A program made the position numbers and the translations under genes. A DNA stretch of 64,000 nucleotides from IMG/VR virus record IMGVR_UViG_3300005973_000002; one strand, 5' to 3'. Positions 5,128-64,000 of the stretch are shown piece by piece. The DNA comes from a virus. Its lineage: Duplodnaviria > Caudoviricetes. Under the pieces are notes generated by a model. The model was given only the letters and a program-made list of their open reading frames with translations, was not told the origin of the DNA and did no database searches. The first letter of the stretch is position 1. Each line of letters starts with the position of its first letter.

Positions 5128-6009
5128 CTATTGAAGCTTCCAAACATAACCTTTGTATGATTTATTGTATTTTATTGCTAAACTAATTCCATTATATTGA
5201 CAATTGTTTTGTCGTGCGGCTTCGCTCATACTTGGCCAAACTTTGATCAGTTTGCCTGTTGGTTCAAACTGTTTAACAGGTTTAGCATTATTGTAACACA
5301 ATTTTCTATTTTCATTTAATTGTGCATGAGATGATAGCCTATCGTCGACAATATCTTTTGAATCAGGCCAGCGCCAATAAAATCCACCGACGGTTCGATG
5401 CGGATTTTGGTTGATGGAATAGGAAATATTGCGCCAACTTTTATATCCAATTCCAAGACCAGCTTGTCTGGTCGATGGCCAGTTTTTAATAACTTTACCT
5501 GTTTGAGGGCAAATTTGTAAAACTTCTTTCGAAGTTGCTTTTCCGCCTGGGTTGTACTTTCTAAGTTTTTCTTTATGTTCTTTTGTATGTTTGGTTGGAA
5601 TGATTTCCCCCGTTTCTAACTTTAGTTTACGAGTTTTTGATATTTTTTTCCTTGTTTCTTCGGGAGTTTGTGACCATGGACCTTCTTTTTGAATGACTTT
5701 TCTCTTGTGGTTCAAAAAATTTGAATCATCCCAAAATTTGTCAACATATTGTTGTTCGACAGTTCTTCTTTTCAGAGTTGTTCCTTCAATTGTTTCAATA
5801 ACTTCAAACAAAAATTCCTCTGGCTTATATTTGGACCATAAATGCAACAAATGCTTGTTATGATGTTTTCCTACATTTAATCTGCTTTGATGCTGTGAGG
5901 CTCTAACTTTGAAGCGCTTCGCACTTCCAATATAAAATTTGCTAGTTGTTAAATGTGTTATTTTATATATTCCACCTTTGTTAGCATCTCCTTTAAACTC
6001 TTTCTTCGT
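5128..6009 (-). mobile_element. GIY-YIG homing endonuclease with NUMOD3/NUMOD1 repeats; ACG at the expected start
   Basis: The frame extends 53 codons upstream of the track start as TKKEFKG...GGIYKITHLTTSKFYIGSAKRF. Two NUMOD1-like C-terminal repeats. Confidence 0.85.
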
Positions 6010-8428: not shown

Positions 8429-9319
8429 TCAAATACTTGTCCAACCCTTATATTCTTCTTGCTTTCCTCTGGCTACTCTGCTCATTACTTGAGGAATAAG
8501 TTTAATTGAAGACTTCGCACAAAACTCTTGCATATTTGTGATAATAACTACTTCACCCTCTGGATTGCGAAGCTTATATGTCTTCTGTTTTAATTTTCGT
8601 AATCTATCTGAAGCTCGTTTTTTTCGTGCTTCATCTTTTGCCCAAGAACGCTTTCGACCTTCAATTACCTTTTCTCGGTACTCAGGATCTTGCCAAAGCT
8701 TCTTATTGAGCTTAGATACAGATTTAGAAATCTTCTTACGTGTTTCCTTTGAAACCTCTTTGCCTTGAGCAGCTTTAGACAGCTTTTTACGGTACTCAGG
8801 CTTCTGTGTAAAATTTCGGATGGCCTCAACATGTTTCTCTCGGTACTCAGCGTCTTGCCAAAGCTCTTTCGTCTTCTTCGATTGAAACTCACTTTGAAAC
8901 TTACGATATTCGGGGTCTTTCCACCTTTTTTTCATTGAAATTGACATCTTCTTTCGAGTTTCTTTTGGAGTTTTTGAACGACACGAACGTCCGTTTCGGT
9001 TTGTTTTTTTGTCTATGTTATAGCACTTTTGCTGACTGTCATAGTGTTTATTGATTAGTTGTTGTTCAACTAGAAGTCTTGCTTTTTGTTCGCCCAATAC
9101 AACTTTAACAACATGAAATTCAAATGAAGACTCACCACATTTATTAAAATCATGTTGTAGAAACCGATTGGAATGTCGATTTTCCTGCAAAGCTTTTAGA
9201 TGTTCGGTAGAACGTTGCTTGAATACTTTACAGGAACCAATGTAAATGCGACCATTGGATATGTTGATTATTTTGTAGACGCCTGATTTGTTTGAATGTC
9301 CGTTGTATACTCTTTTCAT
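8429..9319 (-). mobile_element. Intact GIY-YIG homing endonuclease with NUMOD3 and WxDPEYR repeats
   Basis: GVYKIINISNGRIYIGSCK, SKETRKKIS and repeated W-x-D-P/A-E-Y-R. Confidence 0.9.
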
Positions 9320-9776: not shown

Positions 9777-12700
9777 ATGGGTATTGAAGAGACAAAACAG
9801 TTGAATGAGTTGTTGGAAACTCAAAAAAAGCTGTACAATGAGCAGAATGCTGCTATCAAAAGTCAATTAAGCATGATGCAGCAAATGGTTAGCGTTTTGC
9901 GCTCTTTAGATTTGGAAAGAGTTGGAAGAAATATCGAAGGTCTTAATTCTGCTGTCAACAGTGCTGCTGAGTCAGTTGAAAAACTCGGACAAGGTCAGCA
10001 AACAATGCAACAAATTAATAGAGTTGCAGAAGAAATGGATGATAGTCTTGAAAGGTTGGCAGCAGGAGCTGAAAATTTCGGACAAAAATTATTAAAACTT
10101 GCCCCGGTAGTAGCTACCCTTGAGGGATTAGGTGCTGGACTTACCTTTTCCATGAATGTCATGGGAGGGTTAATAACTGTTGGCCAAAGTTTGGTCGGCA
10201 CTATGTTTAATTTAGCGGCATCGATTATATCTGTGCCGTTTAAGATGCTCAATGGCCTGATGGAAATGGCTGCTCAAGGAGGAGGGTCGGAACTTCGTCA
10301 AGCTATCGAAGATGTACGTCAAGAATTCGGTGATTTATATCAAAACGAAGCTAAGGGCGTCATGCAGTCATGGAGGCAGCTTGATCATTTTGGCGGACAA
10401 TTAGCTGAAACTGGTCTTTCTATTTGGCGTACCATGGGCAACATGGCTGAATCGCTTAAGCGTGTTCATGAGATGGCTACGCAGCTTGGACCTATATTTT
10501 CTAGTGTAACGAACGAATTTATGGGTCCAAAAGCTGTTGAGCGACTGCATGCTTATCAGAAAGGTTTGGGACTAACAGAAGAAGGCTTCCGGGCGATGGG
10601 CGAAGAAGCCGTAAGGCGTGGTGTATCTGTTCAAGAAATGGGCAGGGAAATAACCTCTATTGCATTTGCCATGGGTGAATCCTTTGGTATTAACGGCAAA
10701 CTGATTGGCCGTGAGATTGGAAACATGATTGACGACTTTGAACACTTTGGCAATATTGGTGTTCAAGAGTTGGCTCAAGTTGCTGTATACGCTCGTAAGT
10801 TGGGTGTAGAAGTTGAAAAACTTACTGGTGTGCTTGATCAGTTTGCAGATTTTGATAAGGCAGCTGAGTCTGTAGCACAACTTTCTCAGGCATTTGGCAT
10901 TCAACTTGATACTCTAAAAATGGTTCAAGAACAGGATCCAGCAGCGAACATTGAACGTTTGAGAAAAGCATTCTTTGCAGCTGGTCGTTCTGTTGAACAA
11001 ATGACAAGACAGGAGCGTGCTTTGTTGGCGACGCACACTGGCCTTGATCAAAAGACTCTTTCTCTGGTTTTCTCAGCCGAAAAACAAGGAATGACCTATG
11101 AAGACATTCAAAAGGGTGGAGAGGATGCTCAAAAACAACAGCTTTCTCAAGCTGAAGCTATGGAAAAGCTGTCCAATTCTATCGAACGGCTAGTGAAGTC
11201 GGGACAAGCGATGAAGGGAGGCTTTTTTGATATCTTCCTCCAGGGATTTATGAGGGGAATCAAGTGGACCAGAGAATTCTGGGGACTCATGTGGAATCTT
11301 CGTAGGGCTATGAGAGAAACCAGATGGGCTGGCGTGCGTGTTGGTCAGATGTTCGTTGAATACTTCCCAGGGGTAAGAGATATCCTAAAGGGTATTGCTG
11401 AGTTGTTTGATCCAAGAAGATTTAGAAAAATGCTTGATGGAGTTACCAGTGCATTTAGAACTTTCTTCAAGGCAATGTCTAGTGACCCAAGAACCGCATT
11501 ACCTGAATTGCTTAACAAACTAAAAGAAAGTTTCTTTAACTGGTTTAATACCAGTGAACCAGCCGGGCGTCAGATTTTAGAAGGGTTTAAATCATTTTTT
11601 AAAGCTGTGGGCCAAATTTTTGCTGGGTTGCTTAGGGAGGCAATGAAGGGTGCCACAAAAGCATTTAGATTCATGATTGACTTCATTAAAAACCCTAGTC
11701 AAGTTATTGGAGGAGTTACTCAAGCAACCGATGGGTTTTTAGGCTTTTTGATGGAAGTGCTTGAGCCTGCCTGGGAAGCATTGAGAGACGAATGGCCAGC
11801 ACTTAAAGAAGCATTCCTTGAATTAATGAAAACAGCATGGCAAAAGATCAAGCCGCCTTTAATAGATTTTCTAAAAGAAAATATGATTTACATATTAGGC
11901 GTTGCATTCGGGCCTGCAATTATTACTGGAGGGTTGCGTGGACTATCTACTGTACTACTTGCTGGATTGGTAAAAGCGACTGGTAAAGCAACAGCATCAT
12001 TTGTGCAAAGAGGTCCAAGTCTCGTTAGGTCTGCATTTCAAAAATTAGCAAGAAGAGCACCTGCTGGAGATGTAGCAGCTGGTGGTCGATCCGCAGCAGC
12101 TCTTACCGGTGCAACAAAAGCAGCAGGAGATGCTGCGAATGCAGCACGCCAAACAAGGGTTAGTATGGGCGATGTAGGCAAGATGGCCTTAATAGCTCTT
12201 GTAATTACTGCTGGCTTAATTGCGATTGGCGTAGCCATGGTCGAACTGGCCGATACGATACAAGAAAGAGGCATTACAACTGAGAACATAAGAAACGCTG
12301 CTGTGGTTATGATTGCAACTGGTGCAATCATGCTTGAATTGGCCGGCACCATAGCAATACTGGCTGCTGTCGGTCAAGCAATTCAATCGCAAGTTCAAGG
12401 TGTATTAATTGGTGTTGCGGCAGTTGGGGTAGTGGGTGCTGCCATGGCTTTTGGGGCAATGGGTATGATTGAGTTGTTCAAAGGCTATAGTGAAGGCGAG
12501 GTTAATAATGCAGTTAAAATTATGGGAGCTACGGCAGCATTCTTTTTGGCAGCCATTGCAGTTACCTTTGGTGCTGGAGTAATAGGAGCAATAATTTCTG
12601 CAACCTCGGGAATAGCTGCGGCCGTTGTTTTGGCTGGACTTGCAGCTCTTGGCGCCATGATGATTGGCATGACCGAAACAATAAAGCAGGTTATTGACGT

Positions 12701-14381
12701 TGTCAAGTCTGTTAGGGTCACAACTTCAGACATGAGAAGCTTAAAGGCATTCACAATTGTTTTAAGTTCGATGGGTGAATTTGCCGGCAACATTGCTCAC
12801 ATCACCGAAGCCACATCACCTGGTTTTGTTGATTTAATAAGAGGCGGTGAACCGATGACCGAACGTTTGAAAGAAACTACCAATCTTGTTCAAAGTATGG
12901 GTAGCGAGTTGCGTTCAATGGTTAGAACGGTAGTTGAACAAGCAAACATACTTGGAGGGGGTGAAGAAGATCTACGCAAAGTAGAAGTTATTGCCGGGGT
13001 GCTGACAACAATAGGAAGTGTGGCAAGAAATCTTAGACCGCCTGAGGAAATCATGGATGTTGGCTGGATAGAGCAGTTTGGAGGTGAGGACGTTTCAAGT
13101 CGCATTAGAGAAATGACAAATTATGTCACCAGCGTAGTTCAATCACTGCACAATTCTGTTATTGACATTACAAGAGAATTTAGTCAAATTGCCCAGGCAG
13201 GTGGGTTTACAGCAGAATCACTGGATGCGGCAAAAGCAATTGGAGCTATTCTTCAGTCGGTTGGTCTTATTGGCCGAGCCATGACTGTTTATATTTCACG
13301 TGAATATGCAACAACTGATCCAGATACACTGAGACGACTAGCACCTCAATTAGGTGCAGTGGTTGAAAGCATGATGTCGGCTATTGTGGGCCAAGGTGGT
13401 CACAACATTTTTTCAAGAATGGCAGGGGTGATCAGATTCATTCTTGATGGAATGAGAGACGTTTCTCCAGCTGAAGCTCGACGTGTTGAGCAATTTACAC
13501 CAATGATTCAGTCAGCATTTACAGCTATCGCAGGTATATCAACATTGCTAGGCAATGTTGGTTTAGGCGCTGCTGTGCAAGGTGACCCTGAGAGAACCAA
13601 ACAAAATATTGATCAAATGATCAGAATGGCCAATACTGTAACATATGGGGTGGGTAATAACATTAAGGGAATTATAACATCCATAGTTGAAAACTTTAGT
13701 GGTCTTGACCGTGGACAAATTTCTAATGTGAAAAGTGGAATGGAAGCTGTTAAGTCGGTCCTTGAATCAATTAGTCAATTCACTGGCATTGCCGATTCTT
13801 TGAAAGGCTTAGGAGGAGGCGCTGCCGCAGGTCAAGAGATTTTAACTGGACGAGACGCATTATCTACTGCTTTTGGAGCAATAGTCACCTTGATATCAGG
13901 AGTAGGTGATAAGATGGGATTGGAAGGTTTTATCGATGGCATCCTTCCAGGGCTCAACAACATAGGAACAAAAATAGAGCCTTTGTCTGATGCGTTACCT
14001 GATTTTATAGAAGCAATGCGTCTAACAAAGGGAGCAATCACGGCTGTCGACAGAGTCTACAGTGGAGAAGTGTTCCAAAATGTAAGCCAAATTGATGAAG
14101 CCGTGTTGACCAAAACCAAAGATGCAGTCACTTCAATGGTTACCAACATTAATGAAATTGGTCAAGCTCTAAGGGGTGTTAGAGGATTCAATATTAATTC
14201 AGAGCTGCAAGCTGTAAACAATAGATTGAATCTAGGCTCCTCGGGTAGGCTTCAAATTGCCCATCAGCCAGTTCAATTCAATGTTAGCTGGAGAATTACT
14301 CTTGATTCTGAAGAACTTGAAAAGGCACTTGTGGAAAGACAAGGGAGTACGATTCAAACAAAACGTGATACTGTAACTTGA
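9777..14381 (+). CDS. Tail tape measure protein
   Basis: 1534 aa, Ala/Gly/Met-rich and helical, with N-terminal coiled coil and hydrophobic central segments. Lies upstream of baseplate hub genes. Confidence 0.85.
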   Translation: MGIEETKQLNELLETQKKLYNEQNAAIKSQLSMMQQMVSVLRSLDLERVGRNIEGLNSAVNSAAESVEKLGQGQQTMQQINRVAEEMDDSLERLAAGAENFGQKLLKLAPVVATLEGLGAGLTFSMNVMGGLITVGQSLVGTMFNLAASIISVPFKMLNGLMEMAAQGGGSELRQAIEDVRQEFGDLYQNEAKGVMQSWRQLDHFGGQLAETGLSIWRTMGNMAESLKRVHEMATQLGPIFSSVTNEFMGPKAVERLHAYQKGLGLTEEGFRAMGEEAVRRGVSVQEMGREITSIAFAMGESFGINGKLIGREIGNMIDDFEHFGNIGVQELAQVAVYARKLGVEVEKLTGVLDQFADFDKAAESVAQLSQAFGIQLDTLKMVQEQDPAANIERLRKAFFAAGRSVEQMTRQERALLATHTGLDQKTLSLVFSAEKQGMTYEDIQKGGEDAQKQQLSQAEAMEKLSNSIERLVKSGQAMKGGFFDIFLQGFMRGIKWTREFWGLMWNLRRAMRETRWAGVRVGQMFVEYFPGVRDILKGIAELFDPRRFRKMLDGVTSAFRTFFKAMSSDPRTALPELLNKLKESFFNWFNTSEPAGRQILEGFKSFFKAVGQIFAGLLREAMKGATKAFRFMIDFIKNPSQVIGGVTQATDGFLGFLMEVLEPAWEALRDEWPALKEAFLELMKTAWQKIKPPLIDFLKENMIYILGVAFGPAIITGGLRGLSTVLLAGLVKATGKATASFVQRGPSLVRSAFQKLARRAPAGDVAAGGRSAAALTGATKAAGDAANAARQTRVSMGDVGKMALIALVITAGLIAIGVAMVELADTIQERGITTENIRNAAVVMIATGAIMLELAGTIAILAAVGQAIQSQVQGVLIGVAAVGVVGAAMAFGAMGMIELFKGYSEGEVNNAVKIMGATAAFFLAAIAVTFGAGVIGAIISATSGIAAAVVLAGLAALGAMMIGMTETIKQVIDVVKSVRVTTSDMRSLKAFTIVLSSMGEFAGNIAHITEATSPGFVDLIRGGEPMTERLKETTNLVQSMGSELRSMVRTVVEQANILGGGEEDLRKVEVIAGVLTTIGSVARNLRPPEEIMDVGWIEQFGGEDVSSRIREMTNYVTSVVQSLHNSVIDITREFSQIAQAGGFTAESLDAAKAIGAILQSVGLIGRAMTVYISREYATTDPDTLRRLAPQLGAVVESMMSAIVGQGGHNIFSRMAGVIRFILDGMRDVSPAEARRVEQFTPMIQSAFTAIAGISTLLGNVGLGAAVQGDPERTKQNIDQMIRMANTVTYGVGNNIKGIITSIVENFSGLDRGQISNVKSGMEAVKSVLESISQFTGIADSLKGLGGGAAAGQEILTGRDALSTAFGAIVTLISGVGDKMGLEGFIDGILPGLNNIGTKIEPLSDALPDFIEAMRLTKGAITAVDRVYSGEVFQNVSQIDEAVLTKTKDAVTSMVTNINEIGQALRGVRGFNINSELQAVNNRLNLGSSGRLQIAHQPVQFNVSWRITLDSEELEKALVERQGSTIQTKRDTVT

Positions 14382-39504: not shown

Positions 39505-40491
39505 TTAAGGAAGTAGAGGATTATCATACTTGAACATGAAGTAGGCATCATCATCGCCGTCTTCATCTTCTATCTCTTCTTTGTCGAATGATTGCTCAAT
39601 ATCAATACTATCCCATTCATCAACCGGAATCCAATTAGTTCCGTCCCAAACATCGATATAATCAGCGTCAATTCCATCAGGAATAATGTATGCACCTGCG
39701 ACTGCGTCTTTAGAACCCAACTCGTCGTCAAATAAATCGTCTTCCAGGAATGCAGCTGGGTCGATTTTTAAGACCACAGGCACCAATCCATCTTCAAGAG
39801 GATTGTCACTATTATGCTCTGCAAATTGTTCTGCTCTGTTGAACCAAAAACTAACACCATCATCTTCTGTCAGAAAGACACCTTTCTTAGAATGAGCATC
39901 ATAACCACCAGCACCGATAGACCTAGCCATCCCCGGCCTCAATCCAGCCTCTGAGATGCCGCCTAAGCGGTTGAAGTAAGTTACATGATACAGAGGGTCG
40001 TTAATTTCCGAACCGTCTATAACCTCTTTTACAATATTATTAAAGCGTCGCTTTTTGATGGGTTGATTTCTGAAATACTCTATAATATCTTTTTCTGATG
40101 GTAGATCACGCCTACCCAACGCCACGCCTAACCAACCAATCATAGGAACGTCTCTATTTGGGAGACCTAAACCTGAACCTCGTGCATCGTTACATGGATA
40201 ACAAGACCAGGCGAGGTTCCACCTATCAAATTTGGGGCCTCCAAGAGAGCGTAGAATGATGTGTTCGACACCAACTAAAGTTTTTTCTCCACAAAAGGCA
40301 CAGCTTTTACCAACTCTTTCTTTTTTAAGTCGGCCAACTCTCCAACCTGTAGGTCTGTTCTGTTTTGATTTCAGATTTTTTAACCACTCTATGTAATCAG
40401 CAGCGTGTTTAACATCGGCCCCATCCAAACTTTCTGCAAGTTGTTGGAACTCTTCATCAACAAGCAATTCAATCAATGTTTTGATGGACAT
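39505..40491 (-). CDS. HNH nuclease domain fused to an ADP-ribosyltransferase-like domain
   Basis: CAFC...EHIILRSLGG...NLAWSCYPCN, then LYHVT...GISEAGLRP...GVFLT. Confidence 0.6.
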   Translation of the reverse strand: MSIKTLIELLVDEEFQQLAESLDGADVKHAADYIEWLKNLKSKQNRPTGWRVGRLKKERVGKSCAFCGEKTLVGVEHIILRSLGGPKFDRWNLAWSCYPCNDARGSGLGLPNRDVPMIGWLGVALGRRDLPSEKDIIEYFRNQPIKKRRFNNIVKEVIDGSEINDPLYHVTYFNRLGGISEAGLRPGMARSIGAGGYDAHSKKGVFLTEDDGVSFWFNRAEQFAEHNSDNPLEDGLVPVVLKIDPAAFLEDDLFDDELGSKDAVAGAYIIPDGIDADYIDVWDGTNWIPVDEWDSIDIEQSFDKEEIEDEDGDDDAYFMFKYDNPLLP

Positions 40492-45593: not shown

Positions 45594-46651
45594 TTATTCT
45601 ACTAACACCCAACTTTTATGATGTCGTCTTTTGCCTTGAAATACCTTGATAAGTAGGCTTCTTTCTAAATTGTGTTTTCTGCAAAATTTAGAAAGGTTTG
45701 TTATCGGTCCATAAACATTCCCATTTGGATCTTTGATTTTTATATCATAGGTTTTTTGTCTAGACTCTATAAGAGAGTTTGCAACGTGTTTTGGCATTCG
45801 CCTTCCTGTGTTTGCTTTGATAAGTGCTTTTTTTGTTTTTGACAACATTCGTTTGCCGAAATTGGGATTTTTAGTTCCGATCTTTTGGTTTCTTAACTTT
45901 TTCAGTGTCTCCTTTGAGTGCTTTTTCCCCATGTTCGCTTTAGAAATTTTTTCTTTTGTTTCATTACTCATGGGTATTTTTTCAACACCGCAATATTCTT
46001 TATTTTCTTCTAACACCCATCCCTTGTGATGTATTCGTTTACCCTGAATTACCTCAGACAAGTGTTTGTTGCATAAATTATGTTTAGCTGCAAACTTGGC
46101 TAGATTTTCTATCTTAGTAAATTTTTTTCCTTTTGGAGAAAGTAATGATGTGTAATATACTTTAGCAGCAGAATTAATTGGTTTCACATCTAACAATCTC
46201 TTAACCAGAGCTTCTTTTCTTGTAGGATTGTTTTTGTAGAATTTTTTAGGCGCTTGAGAAATTTTTTGTTTATGTACCTTGGAAAAACCATCCCGGTCCT
46301 TTGACCAACATGTTCTTTTACTAGATTTCGGCTTTTCTGAAAATTAAAGCAATTATCCCAATTTCCTAAACCAACCTGCTCTTTGAGCAATTCCTCTTCT
46401 CGGATTGTTCTCGCTAGGCGATCACCTTCAATTACTTCAACAACTTCAAACAAAAAAGCATCTTCGCCATGTTTATTGAAACTAGCTTGAAGATGTTTGT
46501 TCTGATGTTTTTGCTTCCTCAAGGAAGAGGCATGCTGCGAAGCACGCACTTGAAAACATTTAGCAGAACCAATATAAATTTTGTTGTTTTTGATGTTGGT
46601 AATCCGATAAATTCCACCTTTTTTAGAATTTCCTTTATAATCTTTTTTCAT
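45594..46651 (-). pseudogene. GIY-YIG homing endonuclease split by a -1 frameshift
   Basis: GGIYRITNIKNNKIYIGSAK in 46190-46651. The linker KPKSSKRTCWSK and NUMOD3/NUMOD1 part continue in the -1 frame from the A4 run at 46333-46336. Confidence 0.85.
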
Positions 46652-52504: not shown

Positions 52505-54355
52505 CTATACCACCGTTCCAACAATATCAAAATTTTTGTAACGAAGTTCAAAAATTGAACCAGGTGGTCCAATGATGATTCCTCTGTCTGTGTTGGCACT
52601 TACATCAAATTGCACATCAGAATATTCTCTTGGGTTTGAATCTCCGACAGTGCCTGTAATATTTTTAATGTCAATGGAATTGACTGTCAAAACTCCTAAA
52701 TTGTTGAAAATAATGTTTTGAACTTCGGCAGTTACTATTGGTTGATCAATTTCAAAGTTCTTGATGTTGAAAAATTCTTTCAATTTGTTAATAACATTTT
52801 GAAGAACCTGGCTTGAATTGAACGACGGATTTACAACAATAGAAAACTCAATTTGAAAATTAATTACCTGTGCATCAAGAATGTCAATAGCGTCTGATAC
52901 AAGACGATATTCATTTAAGAATCTTTGTAGATTTAGCTTCAAGCTATCGGGAGAAGCAATCAATCGACTATTGGCATCTCTTGAGATAATAAACAACCGT
53001 GTCGCAAGTGGGTTATTTGGATCAGGTTGAATTGAAGCTCTGAATACACGACCAAAATTACTTGGCATGGTGTAAACACGTGCTAACAAATCTTCTTTTG
53101 TTACGATGCGACCCTGTGACGCCTTCACTGCGGGCACTCTTAATTTCAGTTCATCGATTGTAGGAGCATCCTCCCCGCCAGATGCGGGCGAAGAATTTTG
53201 AGCATCAATACTCTGTCTGACAAATTGTGAAACGCTTGGTGGTGGATTTTCTGGGAAACTTATTACGATTGAATTAAAGCCTCTAATTTGCCTTTCCCCA
53301 ATGTTGTGCGACAAACCTCCACCATAGCGATACTCGATTGTTAATGTTGTATTTGGAGCAATTACGCCAAGCGTGGTGGTTTTTAGCAAATTGCCTGGGT
53401 TGATTGTGAATCTTGAAAACGTTTTCTTTCCATAAAGTGGAACTGCAAATTCTGACGGATCTGGAATGATGTCATCATCGGTTGTTTGAGCGTTACCACC
53501 TCCAAATGTAAGTGTTGTTAATCTTGATTCCAAAGCAGTAGTCGTAGTAAAGCGATATGGAGCGGGAATCGGAACAAGATTTTCCGCAACTATGTCAGAA
53601 TCATCTGAACCGTTCTCAATCGCTCGAAAAACAGTATCTTGTGTAAGATGTTCTACTTCGTAATATTGGTTACCCAATGAATCACGAACCGAAATAATCT
53701 CGGTAACGTTTTCTTGCGTAAGAACAAAACGACGAAACGGAGTAAATGCCCCCACAGAGAAAGAATCCACTTGTCGAAATCCTGAAATGCAAACACCAGC
53801 AAGAGAAAGAATAAAGGTGGTAGGATTATTGTTTGAATCTCTGTTGCCGACTCTGACGGTTGCAACAAGATTGTTTGAGTTGTCTCTCTCTCTGAAATCC
53901 AAATCTTCAGTTAGTTCAAACTGTGTGCCATTTTGAGCACGAACAACAGTTCCCTGATGAATGATTGGCAAAGACTCAGGATCAGGAACAGCCGGTATTC
54001 CTGATGCGGGTACTTCTACTAAAAAATTTACAGTCACTACAGCTGGAGAAGCTCCTACAATAGGAACACCAGCATTTCTGATTATCTTTTCTATGTTAAC
54101 GTTTTCTACTGCCGTATCAATTGAAAGCTCATGAAACTGGTGATCCAAATAGAACGATTGAACATCACCTGTATATGCAGCAAAGTCAAGGAGCAAACCT
54201 CCCAGGCTTGCTTCTGAGAAATCTCTAATGACATCAGGGAAGTGTGTACGTGCGTAATTAAGCAAATCAGCTTTTAGAGAATTAAAATCTTTGTTAAGAT
54301 AGCGACGCTCCCTTACCTGCTTTAATATTTTATCTTTACTATTAACTGGTGTCAC
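52505..54355 (-). CDS. Baseplate wedge protein (T4 gp6 / P2 gpJ-like)
   Basis: YLNKDFNSLK...DFSEASLGGLLLDFAAYTGD...FYLD, YRYGGG, GGED and RIVTKEDL. Confidence 0.88.
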   Translation of the reverse strand: MTPVNSKDKILKQVRERRYLNKDFNSLKADLLNYARTHFPDVIRDFSEASLGGLLLDFAAYTGDVQSFYLDHQFHELSIDTAVENVNIEKIIRNAGVPIVGASPAVVTVNFLVEVPASGIPAVPDPESLPIIHQGTVVRAQNGTQFELTEDLDFRERDNSNNLVATVRVGNRDSNNNPTTFILSLAGVCISGFRQVDSFSVGAFTPFRRFVLTQENVTEIISVRDSLGNQYYEVEHLTQDTVFRAIENGSDDSDIVAENLVPIPAPYRFTTTTALESRLTTLTFGGGNAQTTDDDIIPDPSEFAVPLYGKKTFSRFTINPGNLLKTTTLGVIAPNTTLTIEYRYGGGLSHNIGERQIRGFNSIVISFPENPPPSVSQFVRQSIDAQNSSPASGGEDAPTIDELKLRVPAVKASQGRIVTKEDLLARVYTMPSNFGRVFRASIQPDPNNPLATRLFIISRDANSRLIASPDSLKLNLQRFLNEYRLVSDAIDILDAQVINFQIEFSIVVNPSFNSSQVLQNVINKLKEFFNIKNFEIDQPIVTAEVQNIIFNNLGVLTVNSIDIKNITGTVGDSNPREYSDVQFDVSANTDRGIIIGPPGSIFELRYKNFDIVGTVV

Positions 54356-54365
54356 TTGTTTCTCC

Positions 54366-54839
54366 TTAGATGATGAACAGTTCTAGCTCCAGCGCTTCTT
54401 CTATGATGTTTAGTTGCGTCACTGAGTAAATAAGGAAAATTCTAATTTTTCCTGTAAATTGATTATCGTCAAAATCTGCCCTTGAATCAAAAGCAACTGG
54501 TTGGACAAATGGCATCCATCTTGTAATTGCCGTGTTAATTCGAACCATCGCCTCTGTGTCGAAATCATCTTTGTTTGAATATTCTGTTAATAATGGTCGA
54601 AGGTTTGCTCCAAATTGTGTTAAGGCAATTCTCTCACCCCAATTTGTTAAAAGAAGATTTCTAAGGTTGTCTTTAATCTGATCCCTTAGTTCGGTATTCA
54701 TTTCGAATAAGGTTTTGCCACCGACCAACTGAAGCGGGGTCTTAATTCCAATTGGTATAGTGGAACGATTTCTTGTGAGAACGTTCGTTCTTTGTTGCTG
54801 GGCAATAACACCCACTCCTTTGAAACTTCGTCTTGCCAT
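54366..54839 (-). CDS. Baseplate wedge gp25-like (GPW/gp25) protein
   Basis: QIKDNLRNLLLTNWGERI...FGANL...I..AITRWMPFV. Confidence 0.88.
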   Translation of the reverse strand: MARRSFKGVGVIAQQQRTNVLTRNRSTIPIGIKTPLQLVGGKTLFEMNTELRDQIKDNLRNLLLTNWGERIALTQFGANLRPLLTEYSNKDDFDTEAMVRINTAITRWMPFVQPVAFDSRADFDDNQFTGKIRIFLIYSVTQLNIIEEALELELFII

Positions 54840-57162: not shown

Positions 57163-57756
57163 CTATGAGAGAACTTCAAAAACTACGCTTTTAATCAAGT
57201 TCTTAATCTCATTAAGTTTTGCAGACAAGTTGTTGACGATTTCATCCTCATTCCAAAGTTCCCTAAGCCCATCTACATCTTTGGTTTCTAACCAAAGCTC
57301 ATGTGCAGCCAAGTATTTTTTATTGTCTTGTCCAGGAACCCAAGGTTTGAAGTCTTCGGGCATTCTTGTCCAATCGCCCCAATCGTTAAATGCGGGATGC
57401 AATGGGATTTCAAGCTTGCCGACCTCTTCATTGAATGGTATGGAATCGTTGAGCATTTTTTTAGCTACACTGGGTGTGATTACCTCCAATACTTTGACAG
57501 GTAATGAATTGACATGCCACATAACTTCCTCAGGAAAAGCATTGTCTGGTAATAACTTAGTTTCAAATACAACAACAGCACTTCTGGATTTGGCTCGGCC
57601 CAAATTTGACATTTGGACATTGGGTACAAAAGCACCACCTTCAATAACTGCAAACACGGCTCCTTTTGGCCCATAACTGCTTTGCCACAATTGACCAGAA
57701 CCAGAAATAGCCTTTGCCCCCTCTAAGTCTGTAAAATGTAGATACTTTCGCCCCAT
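57163..57756 (-). CDS. Hypothetical protein with possible ART-like N-terminus
   Basis: YLHFTDLEGAKAISGSGQL..S...AVFA resembles the ART H-x-T...I...G.L pattern. Confidence 0.4.
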   Translation of the reverse strand: MGRKYLHFTDLEGAKAISGSGQLWQSSYGPKGAVFAVIEGGAFVPNVQMSNLGRAKSRSAVVVFETKLLPDNAFPEEVMWHVNSLPVKVLEVITPSVAKKMLNDSIPFNEEVGKLEIPLHPAFNDWGDWTRMPEDFKPWVPGQDNKKYLAAHELWLETKDVDGLRELWNEDEIVNNLSAKLNEIKNLIKSVVFEVLS

Positions 57757-57781
57757 AACTGCCTTTATGTATTCTTTAGGA

Positions 57782-57787
57782 TAATTA
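57782..57787. promoter_or_regulatory. Palindromic TAATTA candidate late promoter serving divergent genes
   Basis: Lies between the starts at 57756(-) and 57793(+). Confidence 0.5.
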
Positions 57788-57792
57788 CTCTC

Positions 57793-58302
57793 ATGTCAAC
57801 AAATAAAAAAACAGATGAAGATTTGCTAGACGATTTTGAGTCTATGCTGTCAGATAAAATGGCAGAAGAAGACAAACCATATCAATATACGGAACAATCT
57901 TTTGACCCACAAGTGCCAGAAACAAGTTTTAAGCCAACACCAACTAAAGAACTTGATAAAAAAATCAACAAACAACTAAAAGACTTTAGTTCATTGCTTG
58001 ATTCTTTATCTTCACTTGAAGATAAAAAGAAGGCACTATGGAAACAGATTTATGAAAATTCTGTTACGGATCGCAAAAACGCATATATTTTGTTTGGTGA
58101 TCTCTATAAAGATGTTCACAACAATCCAAATGAGCATGCCATTCATGGCCCAACCTTAGCCAAGTATCTTGAACGAATGGAAAAATCAAATCAACAGCTT
58201 ATTAAACTTGCTGAAATGATTGATGATGTAGTTGAAGAAGAAGAAGATTTGCTTACTGATGAAGATTCTATTTACGACAGGATTCAAAAGGGACAAAGGT
58301 GA
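57793..58302 (+). CDS. Hypothetical helical protein
   Basis: 169 aa with acidic termini and a helical core. Confidence 0.75.
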   Translation: MSTNKKTDEDLLDDFESMLSDKMAEEDKPYQYTEQSFDPQVPETSFKPTPTKELDKKINKQLKDFSSLLDSLSSLEDKKKALWKQIYENSVTDRKNAYILFGDLYKDVHNNPNEHAIHGPTLAKYLERMEKSNQQLIKLAEMIDDVVEEEEDLLTDEDSIYDRIQKGQR

Positions 58303-60386
58303 TGGCGTTTTTTCTGAAAAAATTGATTAAAGAAGAAGTAAGAAAAACTTTGCGATTGCTCACTGAGGGTATCGTCCACATTGACAAACTCAAGCCAGAA
58401 GAGCTTTTAGAGTTTCTTAGAGGGTGGAATTTAGATAAGGCCAGGTTCCATGTGTCAGAAAAAATGGATGGCAATTACATGGCTTTGGGGGTGGACAATG
58501 GTCAGTTTTACTTGAGAAGCAAAAGTAAAACATTTGAGTCTGCCGATGATGTCCCAAATATATTCTTCATGAACGACTTTAGGAAATACTTCAATCTGCT
58601 TCAGTCCATTCCTTGGAATGAAATTTTTGTTAAGATGGCTACAAAGTGGAATTTTGATTTTGACGGAACGTTTGAAATCGAGGGTGAGGCCATTCCATCG
58701 TTCGACCACAACATTGTTATTTATGATGAGGCAAAAATTGGGGATGGTATCTTTCTTATTTTTAATACAAAATCTACTATGGGCAAAGAAAAAAGTGGAA
58801 GAGTTCACAATCCAGAAATGTGGCTTGACCTTGCGCAAGAGGTTAACAAATACAGCTCAGTTAAATTCTTTTCTGTACCACAGGTAAGTTTAGACGACCT
58901 GGAATTTGATAACGATCTTATCGTAAATTTAGAAGCTCTTATTCAAGAACACGGTAACTTTTTAAAAAAGCCAGCCAGAACACAAGCTGCCAAGGAACTC
59001 AAAGCCAAACTGTTGGCGACAATAGCAGAGCTTGGAAAACAAGCCAAGAGGCAAGCTCTACAAGTACCAGTATCAAGCAAATTTGGCCCGGAAGTAGAGG
59101 GCGTTGTTATTTCTGGACCAGGGGGGAAATTAGTAAAAATTGTTGACACAGAAAAGTTCACTGCCAGAAAAGAAAGAAACTGGCATTTCATTAATCAACT
59201 AATTTCGGCCGAGCGTGATTTCAAAAAAAGGATAAAAGAAAACCCACAAGATTTGGAACTACATCTGCTTGAATGGCAAGAAGAAGTAGAGGACATCCAA
59301 AAAGACTTTGATAAAAATGGGCACAAATACATAACGATCCGAAAGAAATTTGAAGATACGCAAAATGGAATTGACTTTGCATTGGGCATGATAAAAGCGA
59401 TGAAAGATCGCCTTGATGCTGGGCAAACTTCTGAGGAGGTTATTGCTGCCTTCAACAATCGTCAAGTTGTTCCCGAAAATGCGAAATCGCTTTCTGAATC
59501 AGTTTTTATTACCGAAGCTGAACTCAATGAAGGTGGAAATGTTTTTGATGAGATGAATTCTGTAGTGCCAAAATCACTTCTTGAACCAAGTATTGAAAGA
59601 GCGATGGTATTAGCCAATTTGGATGGAATTAAATTTGAAATAGTTGGCAACAAAACTAAACCATTCTTCAATGACATTGACGTTGCTATTGATGCAACGG
59701 ATTTGCTGAATTACCTTGGTCTTCCTGAAGGTACTCAAGAATTTTGGGATGAGCTGAATACTCATCTGGCAAGATCTAACGTTGAAAAATATTCAATCAT
59801 CAAGGGCCTAAAGCAGTTTCATATTTTGGTTCCACTTATTGACAGTTCCGGTGAACAGGTTAGAGCTTTCTTACCAGATGGTGAAAGCAGAAGTGACGAA
59901 CCTGCGTTAATTCAAATTGATGTGTTTGTTGGAAACTTGCAGTGGATGAAAGATATCAATTCTGGTGCGCCAGAATCAAGCAAATACAAGGCATCGTATA
60001 GGAATATGTTACTTGCGTCAATAGCTTCAGTAGTTCAATGGAGCATAGAAGGCGATTCAGACAATGAGTATTTTCGTTATGTGATGAATTTCAGGGACGG
60101 ACTAAAGCGACAGAAGATCAAAGTAATTTCACCAAGTGGCAGAAGAAAAAAACCTAAAAAGGAAAAGCTATCGGACCAAGTAGTAACTTCAAACCCTGAT
60201 GATCTTGCCAAAATTCTTTTCGGCAAAGGTGTCAAATGGTCTGACATGAATTCATTTGAAGAATTATACAATCTTCTTACAAGTAAAAAATTTCGCTTTG
60301 AAAAATTTTTACCTGAAATCATCAAGGAATTTAGAACCTCGCTAGAAAAACAAGGCATGGAAGTTCCTAAACAAGTTTCTGAATGA
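58299..60386 (+). CDS. Fusion of an ATP-dependent (RNA) ligase-like domain and a pol-beta nucleotidyltransferase-like domain
   Basis: Ligase motifs I SEKMDG, III EIEGE, IV EGVVI and V LVKIV. Then EGGNVF...GNKTKPFFNDIDVAID...IQIDVF. Confidence 0.7.
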   Translation: MMAFFLKKLIKEEVRKTLRLLTEGIVHIDKLKPEELLEFLRGWNLDKARFHVSEKMDGNYMALGVDNGQFYLRSKSKTFESADDVPNIFFMNDFRKYFNLLQSIPWNEIFVKMATKWNFDFDGTFEIEGEAIPSFDHNIVIYDEAKIGDGIFLIFNTKSTMGKEKSGRVHNPEMWLDLAQEVNKYSSVKFFSVPQVSLDDLEFDNDLIVNLEALIQEHGNFLKKPARTQAAKELKAKLLATIAELGKQAKRQALQVPVSSKFGPEVEGVVISGPGGKLVKIVDTEKFTARKERNWHFINQLISAERDFKKRIKENPQDLELHLLEWQEEVEDIQKDFDKNGHKYITIRKKFEDTQNGIDFALGMIKAMKDRLDAGQTSEEVIAAFNNRQVVPENAKSLSESVFITEAELNEGGNVFDEMNSVVPKSLLEPSIERAMVLANLDGIKFEIVGNKTKPFFNDIDVAIDATDLLNYLGLPEGTQEFWDELNTHLARSNVEKYSIIKGLKQFHILVPLIDSSGEQVRAFLPDGESRSDEPALIQIDVFVGNLQWMKDINSGAPESSKYKASYRNMLLASIASVVQWSIEGDSDNEYFRYVMNFRDGLKRQKIKVISPSGRRKKPKKEKLSDQVVTSNPDDLAKILFGKGVKWSDMNSFEELYNLLTSKKFRFEKFLPEIIKEFRTSLEKQGMEVPKQVSE

Positions 60387-61199
60387 TTAACGACGATAAA
60401 ACTGGTTGAAAACATCCTGCGTTAAGCCGTAATCAACCAAAACAGGAACTTCTCTGCCATTTCTATTGACCGCACCCCAAGAACTTATACGCATAATATC
60501 ACCAGAAGGCATTCCAAAATCTGCCATCATGGTGACAACATCGCTGAACAATTCTGATTCTTCAATTTCTTCATAGTTGTCAGGAACAGGCATTTTCCAT
60601 CCACGTTGACCTGTTCGATCAATCATGTAATTGTTAAGAGTGGCCATCCAACCATCAAACTTGTGACCAGTGAGCCGCTCCCAATCAGACTTTTTTAATT
60701 TTTTAGCTCGTTCCATTTCAATGTAAAGATAGTTGTCAGCATCATAGTCCTTGACTTCTGCAATTACATTGTAGCCAATGTGCGACACATCTACTTCGAT
60801 TTCGTTTTGCGCCTGTCCCTTTTTGTTGTTTGCAATCTTGACCACCGTGTTTGGATCTACGGCGAAAACAACACGTGCCGAGCCCCCACCAAGTTTGCCA
60901 AGATGCTCACGGGCATAAGCTACTCTTTTACGAAAGCTTGGCAGCGACTTAAATTCTTCAGTGTCAAATCCTTGAGGATAGTCTGCCTCATCAAGCCAAC
61001 CTTCATACAAAGGCTGTTCATGAAGTTCTTCAAGAGCTTCAGCAACCAAATGGCCTATCATTTCCCGTAAATCGTTTTCTGAAATGCTTTTTTCGCCTTC
61101 CTGTTCTTCATTGTCAAACAATAACAATTTTTCTTTGCCGCCAACTTTTACAGTTTTTTTATTGGCTGACTTTTGTTCTTTGGTGTGCCCATCAATCAT
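60387..61199 (-). CDS. Protein-kinase-like fold protein
   Basis: KLGGGSARVVF (Gly loop), VVKIA (Lys), QNEIE (helix C Glu), GDIMRISSWG (catalytic loop) and LVDYGL (DFG-like). Confidence 0.72.
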   Translation of the reverse strand: MIDGHTKEQKSANKKTVKVGGKEKLLLFDNEEQEGEKSISENDLREMIGHLVAEALEELHEQPLYEGWLDEADYPQGFDTEEFKSLPSFRKRVAYAREHLGKLGGGSARVVFAVDPNTVVKIANNKKGQAQNEIEVDVSHIGYNVIAEVKDYDADNYLYIEMERAKKLKKSDWERLTGHKFDGWMATLNNYMIDRTGQRGWKMPVPDNYEEIEESELFSDVVTMMADFGMPSGDIMRISSWGAVNRNGREVPVLVDYGLTQDVFNQFYRR

Positions 61200-61438
61200 A
61201 GCTCATCCTTTTCGTACGCTCTAAGAGCGTACGCTTTATGTTCCATTTCTTCAACAGTTTTTTTTAAATTTTCAATGAATCTCATTGCCATGGTAAAGTC
61301 TTTGTCTTGAAGCTTTTCTCTTATATAACCAAACAATTCTTCAACATCCTCTATTTCAGACGTGACTCCAGGTGCGCCAAGTTGTTCTTCGATAGTTTCT
61401 CGTATTATGTTCCGAAGTTCTGATTTTTTGATTTTCAT
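61196..61438 (-). CDS. Small helical protein with MKIKKSELRNIIRETIEE leader
   Basis: ATG 61438 overlaps the upstream stop (ATGA). Confidence 0.7.
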   Translation of the reverse strand: MKIKKSELRNIIRETIEEQLGAPGVTSEIEDVEELFGYIREKLQDKDFTMAMRFIENLKKTVEEMEHKAYALRAYEKDEL

Positions 61439-61845
61439 CTGAACGCCCTTTTGTTTTTCCATTCTCTTGCAGAATCATTGTCAAATATTCTCAAGACAAG
61501 ATTTACATATGCTCTTGGATCTTTACCACAACTATTCGCTTGTTCTTCTATGGCCGTTAGCAGTTTATGTGTTGCTGGATATGCACTGTAGGGTTCGAGA
61601 AGTGGCCTCATTGTATATACGACTTCATCAGCGTAATATCCATATGGATGTATATGCTGTTCGCCGAACATAGATTCGATTTCGTCAATCGTAACTTTGG
61701 CTATATGTTCCCACATTCCCGGAGCTGAATCTTCAACTTCTGGCTCAACAATAGCCTCATCCATTTCAATTTCACTCATGGTCTCAGCAGCGAGTGCTTT
61801 GACCAATTGCTCCATCGTATAGCCCATTGGGTCCGAACCGTACAT
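61435..61845 (-). CDS. Hypothetical protein
   Basis: 136 aa; TAATTA lies just upstream. Confidence 0.65.
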   Translation of the reverse strand: MYGSDPMGYTMEQLVKALAAETMSEIEMDEAIVEPEVEDSAPGMWEHIAKVTIDEIESMFGEQHIHPYGYYADEVVYTMRPLLEPYSAYPATHKLLTAIEEQANSCGKDPRAYVNLVLRIFDNDSAREWKNKRAFR

Positions 61846-61857
61846 GAAGTTAATTAT

Positions 61858-62391
61858 TCAAACGTTTTCATTATGATACTGAATCTCAAATCTATATGGT
61901 GGGCGCAAAACAAGTTCTTGGTACACTTCTTCCAATTTTTTGTTAGGCCATTGGTTCTGAATCATGTTTACTTGCTTAGCGATTCGCCTATAAAGATCGT
62001 TTATTTCGAATGGTTCGGGTTGCTTTATCAATTCTTTGACTTCAATAGCTTCATGCAAACCAATTAATCTACCGAATAAAATCTTGCATAGTTTATTAGC
62101 TTTTCTAATAGAAAAGAAGGAGCCATAATGATAGCGATAAGCATCGGCAATTTCGTTTGTTTGTCTGGTGAACAGAATATTTTGAAGTTGTACCGGACCG
62201 CCCTCTTGCATGCGTTTGATGACTGCATTCACTTCATAATCAGACGGTTCTCTCAAGAATAATCTAAGCCAAACGTGATTAATGTCTTCTATTTTGTTGT
62301 CCTTCATATATTCGTAAGCTTCTTCAACTTCAAGCTCAACGAGGAATGGATCGGGATTTGCAAACAATGACATTTCGAGTATAAATAGCAT
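61858..62391 (-). CDS. Hypothetical protein (true 5' end uncertain)
   Basis: 177-aa ORF. An in-frame SD-led ATG at 62523 is separated from it by three stops. Confidence 0.6.
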   Translation of the reverse strand: MLFILEMSLFANPDPFLVELEVEEAYEYMKDNKIEDINHVWLRLFLREPSDYEVNAVIKRMQEGGPVQLQNILFTRQTNEIADAYRYHYGSFFSIRKANKLCKILFGRLIGLHEAIEVKELIKQPEPFEINDLYRRIAKQVNMIQNQWPNKKLEEVYQELVLRPPYRFEIQYHNENV

Positions 62392-62594
62392 TGACTAATC
62401 AAACTTGGTTCCAATAAACTTGAACGATAGCACACGTTGCATTAACTTGTTTGAGTTATAATATGGAAATGTAAACTCCGCAGAGACAAATTTGGTATTC
62501 TAAAAAGTTTATATTTTTGTCATTTATTTACCTTTGTTGGAATAAGCACATTAGAATTAATTTTTCGGATTTAGTTTATTCTAGACTTGCGTTA

Positions 62595-62603
62595 TGGTAT
62601 AAT
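62595..62603 (+). promoter_or_regulatory. Extended -10 promoter TGgTATAAT, candidate leaderless transcript
   Basis: Perfect TGnTATAAT ending 5 nt before ATG 62609. Confidence 0.55.
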
Positions 62604-62608
62604 GATTT

Positions 62609-62896
62609 ATGGCTTGGAATCACGAAGAGACTACCCTTGATGGTACCAAGATTTTCAAACCTGGCGAACTCGTTCAGGTTGATCTTACAAAACACATGCT
62701 CATTGATGCAGAAAAGCCGGTAATAAATCCAGACAAGTGGATTAAAACCGACTTTTATGTTTCTGAATATGGGCCTACGCCCATTGTAATGATACTGGAT
62801 CTCAACAACCTAGAGAATTATTACCAGATTGCCATCGGAGAAAAAAAGTTCTGGTATCCTCTCAAGTATATCACTGAAGTGCCTACTGAAAGATGA
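62609..62896 (+). CDS. Hypothetical protein, possibly SH3/KOW-like
   Basis: FKPGELVQV and short beta-strand pattern. Confidence 0.55.
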   Translation: MAWNHEETTLDGTKIFKPGELVQVDLTKHMLIDAEKPVINPDKWIKTDFYVSEYGPTPIVMILDLNNLENYYQIAIGEKKFWYPLKYITEVPTER

Positions 62897-63598
62897 TTAG
62901 CGAGGACGGCCCCTACCAATGCCCATGCCTCGGGCACCAAGGCCACCAATATCCTTGCCCATCTGCACAAGACGTTGTCCTGGGCCCATCATAAACGATT
63001 TTTGCGCCTTTTCAATGTCAGCTGCCTCACGGCCTGCGGAATAAACTCCAGAGCCACGTGGTACCGCCTGAAAGAGCTTGTCAGCAGCATCATTCAATGA
63101 TTGCGAAAGGCTTTGGAGGGTGTAAGCGGCAGCCGCAAATGGTTTGCTTAGCTCTTCTTTTGTTGCCGAATCAACTTCGGCAACTTTCTGAAGCTCATAA
63201 AGATCATAAAGTTGATCAATGTAGCTATTGAGTGCTTGTTCCACTGCTCTTACATCGGTAAGTTTTGTTGCAGCAAGATTTTTTCTTGCTTTTTCAACAC
63301 CTTTTGCCATCTGCATTACGGCCCTGGTGTCTCTTTGTTGCGCTTTAGCCTGCGCTTTTTCGCCTTTTTCCTTACCCATTCTTTCCAAGTCTTGAACGCC
63401 TAGTTTTTTAAACGGACCGAAAAATTCAAGCAGTTGTTTCTTGCTGTTGATTTTCTTGTGCTCTTTAAGAAATGGTGTATTGTATAAGCAAACTAAAGCA
63501 TAGTGCGCAGCCTGTTTCTGTTCTAGTGCAATGGAGGTCGATTCTCTTTTGACAGACTCGCTGACAAGCTTACGAAGTTGTGATTTTTTGATCTTCAT
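62897..63598 (-). CDS. Helical protein with MKIKKSQLRKLVSESVKRE leader
   Basis: GGAG SD and upstream TAATTA at 63620-63625. Confidence 0.75.
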   Translation of the reverse strand: MKIKKSQLRKLVSESVKRESTSIALEQKQAAHYALVCLYNTPFLKEHKKINSKKQLLEFFGPFKKLGVQDLERMGKEKGEKAQAKAQQRDTRAVMQMAKGVEKARKNLAATKLTDVRAVEQALNSYIDQLYDLYELQKVAEVDSATKEELSKPFAAAAYTLQSLSQSLNDAADKLFQAVPRGSGVYSAGREAADIEKAQKSFMMGPGQRLVQMGKDIGGLGARGMGIGRGRPR

Positions 63599-63660: not shown

Positions 63661-63993
63661 TTATCGCCCTCTTTGGCGTTCATATTCCTTAAAAGTTTCA
63701 ACAAAAACTCTATTGAGTTCAATAAGCTTTTGCGAAATTTGATTCAAGATCTTACCAAGAGCCTTTAGTTCATTTAGGAAGACAGAAACTGAAGTAACGT
63801 TTCTAGCATTTTTAAGCATTTGCTCTCCTTCGATTGCAATGCTTTTTACTTCACTGGCAGTAATCAAAATATTTCGAGCGAGATTTCTTCTTCCTACTGG
63901 CGTATCAGGATTCAAGTTCATTTCTGCCATTGGTATCTTTTTGAGTCCTGTCAATATAAGAACTTCCGTATAGCTTTTTTGCACTTTTGGCAA
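63661..63993 (-). CDS. Hypothetical coiled-coil protein (start may lie beyond the window)
   Basis: 110-aa ORF with a helical C-terminal half. Confidence 0.55.
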   Translation of the reverse strand: MPKVQKSYTEVLILTGLKKIPMAEMNLNPDTPVGRRNLARNILITASEVKSIAIEGEQMLKNARNVTSVSVFLNELKALGKILNQISQKLIELNRVFVETFKEYERQRGR

Positions 63994-64000
63994 TTCTTTT

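Follow-up and report, generated by a model that had tools for sequence, protein, structure and literature searches.

A short N-terminal leader shared by otherwise unrelated proteins of a T4-type jumbo phage and its relatives resembles a capsid-targeting sequence

The stretch of DNA considered here, called the window throughout, comprises 64,000 nucleotides (nt) of the viral record IMGVR_UViG_3300005973_000002 (Caudoviricetes). Our subject is a short N-terminal leader that heads otherwise unrelated proteins encoded near the end of the window and, in a related form, proteins of many other phages. The window belongs to an uncultured jumbo myovirus whose genome spans at least 254 kb and whose head is of T4 type. 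The local leader family, which we call type A, follows the N-terminal pattern MK[IL]xKxxL[RK]xhhxE (h, hydrophobic; x, any residue), and three genes at the end of the window carry it:

61196..61438, minus strand: open reading frame (ORF) of 80 amino acids (aa) with a type A leader, codons 1-22 at 61373-61438, MKIKKSELRNIIRETIEEQL
62897..63598, minus strand: 233-aa basic protein (isoelectric point 9.8) with a type A leader, codons 1-22 at 63533-63598, MKIKKSQLRKLVSESVKRE
63661..64000, minus strand: 3' part of the gene for a 242-aa basic protein; the gene begins 390 nt past the end of the window (L001 9210-9938), with type A leader MKLNKVELRKMIKGVLLEVLTE

The 80-aa protein begins MKIKKSELRNIIRETIEE and passes after the leader through a GAPG linker into an acidic helical body; an upstream in-frame ATG at 61462 offers an alternative start. 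The 233-aa protein ends in a Gly/Arg-rich stretch, and its orthologues (72% and 39% identity) retain the QLRK-h-h-x-E core. Eight of the first nine residues, MKIKKS[EQ]LR, are common to the two N-termini. When a strict regular expression was run over all six frames of the window, only three matches were returned, all of them N-terminal: those at 61417 and 63577, which belong to these two genes, and one at 58314, in a gene for an RNA-ligase-like protein that is taken up below. By exact-protein look-ups we extended the sequence 35 kb past the window end, giving a merged 99-kb sequence with 105 called genes. A fourth type A copy, MKITKSQLREMIREAINE, heads a 101-aa gene 7 kb beyond the 242-aa gene, and the head module contains others: one copy begins a 163-aa protein, and a 284-aa and a 164-aa protein each have one internally. 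BLASTP within the phage proteome finds no similarity between the 80-aa protein and the 101-aa protein other than the leader (23 aa, 61%, E 5e-5); a word-indexed homologue search with the first 40 residues of the 101-aa protein returned only the protein itself. A profile built solely from other phages gives 13.3 bits (E 0.003) to 61438 and 6.1 bits to 63598, the best reversed-sequence decoy reaching 5.7. The profile scan bears out these two segments and none of the others listed in an earlier sequence-only reading of the window. The securely tagged proteins of the window are these two small proteins, one of them basic, and not the enzymes of that reading. Their bodies have no Pfam or PHROG annotation, and two of the tagged proteins of the window region are basic with coiled-coil-like sequence.

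The leaders of the window (61438, 63598, the gene at the window end and probably 58302) read as a local variant of a widespread sequence, MKITKSQLKQIIKEEL..VL.E. A DNA pattern for MKITK[ST]QL[KR][EQ]I, searched against IMG/VR, matched at least 120 stretches and at least 169 ORF starts, against about 0.002 expected by our estimate. Conservation extends to residues outside the search pattern: among the matches listed, I12 is kept in 130 of 135 leaders, E14 in 133, E15 in 126, a hydrophobic residue at position 16 in 122 and E22 in 52. With a profile of 90 leaders, a search of public protein-cluster data reaches E <= 1e-3 for 10,838 cluster representatives (clustering at 50% identity). The best of these matches are proteins with two to four leader-plus-body modules, and such internal copies are common, as expected for cleavable polyproteins. 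The bodies themselves are diverse, the 145 tagged proteins among the matches listed falling into 83 body clusters (66 of them singletons), so that a short N-terminal sequence is common to proteins whose remainders are unrelated. Together with the leader-only BLASTP match, these 83 clusters uphold the earlier proposal of a modular tag on unrelated proteins, here in a phage whose head is of T4 type.

A complete 293-kb relative, G001, carries about 33 leader genes, 25 of them within one 10-kb array, in which the genes are packed stop-to-start and no individual promoters were seen. Across 25 leaders of one genome synonymous codons are mixed (I3, ATC 15 and ATT 8; Q7, CAG 12 and CAA 11), and L8 and R6 each use four codons. 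Scrambled synonymous codons with fixed amino acids exclude a DNA-level signal or recent duplication; the leader is conserved by selection at the protein level. Tblastn against cultured phages with the consensus leader and with a two-copy protein gave no match, and with one tagged protein the sole match was an uncultured 484-kb record, LR756508.1. The profile search, however, finds the leader in a cultured phage, Flavobacterium phage immuto, in a 73-aa gene between portal and protease and in three more genes elsewhere (immuto35A_175, _176, _190 and _198). The leader string was not found in the searchable literature, nor did a literature search find a paper linking capsid-targeting sequences to marine phages.

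Of particular interest is the association of the leader with head genes. A T4-type head module lies 15 kb beyond the window end and comprises two tail-sheath paralogues, five small genes, a scaffold-like protein and a gp23-family capsid protein. The major capsid protein (640 aa, PF07068 match) has a pro-region that ends LLKE before TNALSLGG, and an acidic 753-aa scaffold-like protein is encoded directly upstream of it; a gp23-family capsid protein that carries such a pro-region, with the scaffold gene preceding it, marks the head as T4-type. At 45-51% identity, the capsid protein resembles those encoded by abundant marine relatives and by phage immuto; with respect to five large leader-carrying contigs, identity is about 51% for four and 38% for the fifth. 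All five contigs encode Gp23 and a Peptidase_S77 (gp21-family) prohead protease, which is also present at 26 leader loci and in phage immuto (immuto35A_200), and a homologue search with the G001 protease gave at least 8,000 matches. A terminase, T4-type portal or protease gene lies within 14 kb in 69 of 120 leader loci (57%, among the matches listed), and at 12 of the 26 protease loci a strict leader gene stands within three genes of the protease. A conserved gene adjoining the protease starts MKKSELKQLIKPVVKECIHEVLLEEG, an N-terminus related to the leader, and its orthologues are a 143-aa protein of G001 and the 163-aa protein that this phage encodes beside its scaffold gene.

The leader also contains a motif resembling a prohead-protease site. 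In T4, gp21 cuts after L/I-x-E (PMC9026906), and in the T4 record the corresponding leaders end EFIAE, QLIAE and ELLRE (MKTYQEFIAE; gp22, MLKEQLIAE). I-K-E occupies leader positions 12-14 in about 96% of 135 relatives (among the matches listed), and an h-x-E that precedes G, A or S is recurrent at positions 20-22. At sequence level the motif takes the form I-R-E and I-E-E in 61438, V-S-E in 63598, and I-K-E and L-T-E in 58302. The L/I-x-E motif within the tag and, in relatives, the nearness of tagged genes to those for terminase, portal and prohead protease both support a capsid-targeting reading.

On balance, we lean towards reading the leader as a propeptide similar to the capsid-targeting sequence (CTS) of T4, which would address variable proteins to the prohead core. 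The reading draws directly on the leader family and its modularity, on protein-level selection, on the cut-site-like motif, on linkage to head genes and on the related N-terminus of a head-module protein; from these we infer docking, cleavage, packaging and ejection of the tagged proteins. The leader, a charged amphipathic helix of roughly 22 residues, would dock a newly made protein onto the prohead core, and the capsid shell would close around it. A gp21-type prohead protease would then cut after the Glu of one or more I/L-x-E sites in the leader, freeing the body inside the head, and the freed body would leave the head with the DNA at infection.

The T4 CTS, carried by IPI, IPII, IPIII and Alt and removed by gp21, is likewise a short N-terminal peptide on otherwise unrelated, fast-evolving proteins; the T4 internal proteins are a diverse set sharing only the CTS (PMC3012670). 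Both sequences end (E/Q)-h-h-x-E, which matches the L/I-x-E cut motif (PMC9026906), and a gp23-type capsid is found in this phage and gp21-type proteases in its relatives. The sequence-only reading had put the tag forward as the best candidate for an undescribed system, which goes too far: the principle is already known as the T4 CTS (PMC9026906), and what is new is the leader sequence and the far larger scale. The leader system, known from sequence alone, differs from the T4 CTS further in its multi-module polyproteins and in a second, scaffold-derived terminal motif. In phiKZ, 201phi2-1 and SPN3US, too, many head-internal proteins are cut after Glu by a gp21-related protease, and paralogues have identical N-termini (PMC5694885); however, these propeptides run to 80-130 residues and are cut at A/S-x-E, and they belong to phages outside the T4 type and do not form one short portable tag. 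Papers on phage immuto report no virion proteome.

Several observations weigh against a CTS-like role. The phage's own Peptidase_S77 prohead protease was not found in the readable 99 kb, nor was one found in three short relatives. The leader has no sequence homology to the T4 CTS, the likeness being one of pattern only, and by profile comparison the conserved head-module protein has none to T4 gp67 or gp68. Whereas the T4 CTS is tolerant and spans 10 residues, the leader runs to about 22 residues and hardly varies across thousands of proteins, so its partner could be another, more specific one. There are about 33 carriers per genome in the family studied here against about 4 in T4, and in G001 most leader copies stand in arrays that are over 100 kb away from the head module. 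Finally, the assignment of tags to the enzymes of the window is statistically weak, as set out below. Co-folding of one pair, the 80-aa tagged protein and the 163-aa protein of the head module, scored 0.01, which counts neither for nor against the CTS-like reading.

A second terminal motif, RWxxLAG, probably acts as a further address of this sort. The scaffold-like protein ends NRWQVLAGIKKVD in this phage, DRWALLAGLTSDK in G001 and SRWQKLAGIIK in phage immuto. RWxxLAG also ends two further G001 proteins, in one of which a P-loop-like motif can be read by eye and for both of which Pfam gave no match, and a looser xWAxLAF form ends the conserved head-module protein. Six accessory genes just past the window start (K)ERWxxLAGhhKE (L001 3543-6753; L009 5264-5635 and 8647-9492; L011 7684-9945). 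As a strict DNA pattern, KERWxKLAGL had four matches in IMG/VR, about the chance level, so the N-terminal, or type B, leader is lineage-specific in that form. Since RWxxLAG occurs at protein termini only and is common to the end of the scaffold, it is best read as a docking peptide. In this it resembles the coat-binding peptides of scaffolds and the cargo-loading peptides of encapsulins, in that a short terminal peptide is common to the scaffold C-terminus and accessory proteins. Encapsulin-type peptides dock cargo inside an HK97-fold shell, and RWxxLAG is likened to them from its terminal position and the scaffold identity alone; it differs from both kinds in being used at either terminus, and most of its copies lie outside the window. 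A similar sequence, KKWGATGLLEG, is held in the capsid pro-region and may be compared with NKWKPLLEG of T4 gp23. In phage immuto, immuto35A_203 (MW353176.1 125582-126823), annotated as a "DNA polymerase phi-like protein", looks like the head scaffold protein, judging by its acidic N-terminal sequence, its place before the capsid gene, its gp22-like N-terminus and its RWQKLAGIIK end.

The remainder of the window is consistent with a large myovirus. ORF listing and family searches identify a tape-measure protein (9777-14381), a 17-kb cluster of sugar-nucleotide and glycosyltransferase genes, and baseplate gp25 and J-like genes (52505-54839); megablast and tblastn matched no cultured phages to parts of the window. 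The phage is also found on a 254-kb JGI contig, which ends 1.8 kb past the window end, and on a 461-kb ENA contig, which may be a concatemer or misassembly, leaving the genome size uncertain. In the window and its extension, 12 genes are preceded within 60 nt by the palindrome TAATTA where 0.9 would be expected, a 13-fold enrichment; the genes it precedes include those for the tape-measure protein and the 163-aa head-module protein and two accessory genes, and it occurs 27 nt upstream of the 233-aa tagged gene, as before several structural genes. Close variants of the form TAATT[AT] are found ahead of the genes for gp25, the sheath and the 233-aa tagged protein. TAATTA is a candidate late-promoter core, and its position before tail, baseplate, head-module and 233-aa tagged genes is a weak hint of shared late expression. 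The two tail-sheath paralogues are in tandem (1019 and 1009 aa, 33% identical, L011 1-4465). A free-standing fragment of the capsid gene, far from the head module, is present at 453-653 of the window, where a 66-aa ORF corresponds to residues 85-122 of the phage's own major capsid protein (71% identity, E 4e-15). Paralogous GIY-YIG homing endonucleases are encoded at 5128-5850, 8429-9319 and 46190-46651 with 45594-46196 in the window, and at L011 12108-13001; one gene follows directly after the capsid gene, like segD in T4, and one is apparently split into two ORFs. An actin-like Volactin (PF25216) gene lies 0.9 kb past the window end (L001 7741-8745), and a tubulin/FtsZ-family protein is encoded near the head module in 25 leader-carrying relatives among the matches listed (e.g. 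L022 1760-2899).

The sequence-only reading had listed eight related segments and proposed that the tag loads a cocktail of enzymes into the head. All eight are present in the genes named, and two of them, at 61438 and 63598, belong to the true N-terminal leader family; the others concern the following features:

58302..60386, plus strand: 694-aa RNA-ligase-like fusion, codons 1-22 at 58302-58367, MAFFLKKLIKEEVRKTLRLLTE, ending L-T-E before G
57166..57207, minus strand: last 14 residues, IKNLIKSVVFEVLS, of a 197-aa protein (gene 57163-57756)
61020..61073, minus strand: helix DLREMIGHLVAEALEELH, residues 43-60 of a 270-aa kinase-like protein (gene 60387-61199, phrog_4301)
61435..61845, minus strand: 136-aa acidic protein, whose N-terminal YTMEQLVKALAAE weakly resembles the capsid protein N-terminus MKTFTLEQLAEG
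39505..40491, minus strand: 328-aa HNH protein, whose N-terminal MSIKTLIELLVDEE is weakly like the N-terminus of a head-module 185-aa protein (rank 7)

We scored about 31,000 positions with a matrix made from seven sure leaders. The N-terminus of the ligase fusion, in which PF09414 covers residues 50-271 (E 5.5e-5) without reaching the Pfam cut-off, is rank 2 of the non-training positions and best matches the leader of the 163-aa head-module protein and its relatives. Its pattern is kept in orthologues at 76% and 59% identity, with an invariant LTEG at its end, and the ligase N-terminus is probably a diverged leader. The ligase fusion is alone among the enzymes in having a plausible tag, although the profiles give it no support above decoys. 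The C-terminus of the 197-aa protein, which may be a C-terminal instance of the motif, is suggestive only: self-matches apart, nothing in the proteome fits the leader of the neighbouring 242-aa protein better (score 34 against 26 for the next), and it takes rank 4 in the matrix scan, which is not significant alone; Pfam gave no match for this protein or for a 414-aa ART-like protein. The kinase-like helix (rank 6) is likewise suggestive as a segment. Its PHROG match covers residues 89-268 only, and residues 43-268 align with the phage's own paralogues, in which the equivalent helix is N-terminal; we regard it as a feature of its paralogue family and not as an independently added tag. This family has four members (window 60387-61199 and L163 3242-5516, about 30 kb past the window end), one copy being split into 94-aa and 138-aa ORFs, and all have an N-terminal helix of the LKEQIRFMV type. 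The remaining segments are near chance: the N-terminus at 61845 resembles only that of the major capsid protein (score 26 against 22 for the next) and matches neither type A profile, the HNH N-terminus falls outside the top 30 of the matrix scan, and FNNIVKEVI, internal in the HNH protein, is at rank 27, the chance level. The enzyme cocktail is weakly supported: the secure carriers are the two small proteins.

How far these weaker segments should be credited is evenly balanced. Apart from 61438, 63598 and the gene at the window end, it is an even bet that the listed segments are chance amphipathic helices, and the enzyme cocktail an artefact of reading h-h-x-E into helical proteins; for the window enzymes in particular, chance resemblance seems about as likely as a true tag. 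Neither profile raises 58314, 61199, 61845, 57163 or 40491 above decoys, the kinase-like helix is shared by descent among its paralogues, and N-terminal enrichment in the ten best non-training matrix matches reaches only p = 0.07, the top match (ELRSMVRTVVEQ, residues 1044-1055, window 12903-12938) lying inside the tape-measure protein, probably by chance. Rank 2 for the ligase N-terminus, rank 4 for the C-terminus of the 197-aa protein and rank 6 for the kinase helix speak the other way, as do the ligase pattern and LTEG retained by orthologues. The motif class itself, [LIVMF][LIVMF]xE, is common, being found in 10.5% of internal 23-residue windows, yet it occurs in residues 4-26 of 28 of the 105 genes, a 2.5-fold enrichment at N-termini (p = 3e-6) that is concentrated at 58-86 kb of the extended sequence.

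Other explanations concern the leader as a whole. It could be a docking helix for a partner outside the prohead (a host hub protein, an intracellular structure built by the phage, or a chaperone or protease adaptor), its nearness to head genes reflecting only where variable genes accumulate. We think this improbable but worth serious attention: conservation is much stricter than a T4-type CTS needs, the large arrays of G001 lie far from the head module, and the carriers have cytoskeletal genes, with tubulin in 25 leader loci and Volactin just past the window. Such a partner would not account for the related N-terminus on a conserved gene beside protease and scaffold genes in three divergent phages, for the fit of the near-invariant I-K-E and the recurrent h-x-E plus small residue to the gp21 cut motif, or for terminase, portal or protease genes at 57% of the listed leader loci. 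We give rather less credence to the tagged proteins being prohead core or scaffold-like components, or a DNA-condensing filler, that are destroyed or retained and not delivered as effectors. A related N-terminus does head conserved head-module proteins, many bodies are short, acidic or of low complexity, two window proteins are basic and coiled-coil-like, and T4 gp22, gp67 and gp68 are cut to fragments (PMC5694885); but 83 body clusters from the 145 listed proteins, and more than 10,000 clusters overall, are too diverse for a structural role, and such hypervariability matches the internal proteins of T4, which serve as counter-defence cargo (PMC3012670). Numerous small genes that pair an invariant leader with a hypervariable remainder have the look of a precursor array for ribosomally synthesized and post-translationally modified peptides (RiPPs), the leader then being recognized by a modifying enzyme such as a radical-SAM/SPASM maturase. 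This is highly improbable, because the bodies are of 50-600 aa and not Cys-rich, and no enzymes recur near leader genes other than the terminase of the head module and the prohead protease, which also tells against a partner outside the prohead; PF04055 (Radical_SAM) and PF13186 (SPASM) are absent from the complete G001, and SPASM from all five large carriers, and the RiPP-like explanation was rejected. The least credible explanation places the conservation in DNA or RNA, as a translation-initiation or recombination cassette, as in the promoter-stem-loop shuffling of T4-type phages. Array genes are indeed tightly packed and all start ATGAAAAT, but conservation spans 22 codons, in-frame internal copies exist, and a search pattern open to all synonymous codons nevertheless returned a uniform peptide; the codon analysis given above refutes it.

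A CTS-like propeptide is thus the reading we carry forward. In its broadest form, it would describe an abundant, mostly uncultured clade of marine T4-like jumbo phages with a capsid cargo system of at least two addresses, in which the leader MKITKSQLKQIIKEE... (more than 10,000 cargo families) and RWxxLAG load dozens of variable proteins per virion for delivery, including an RNA-ligase/nucleotidyltransferase fusion and cleavable chains of two to four units; we offer this form only tentatively. Phage immuto is cultured and carries both motifs, which makes the question directly testable there and the phage the obvious test system. If the reading is true, the principle of the T4 CTS would have grown from a handful of proteins to dozens in each genome, with multi-module chains open to cleavage and the scaffold supplying a second address, and a short, portable tag that brings its own release site could serve for loading proteins into phage capsids. 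The leader would then mark the injected-protein repertoire of one of the commonest groups of large phages in the ocean, and more than 10,000 protein families, most likely factors for counter-defence or host takeover, would become readable from sequence.

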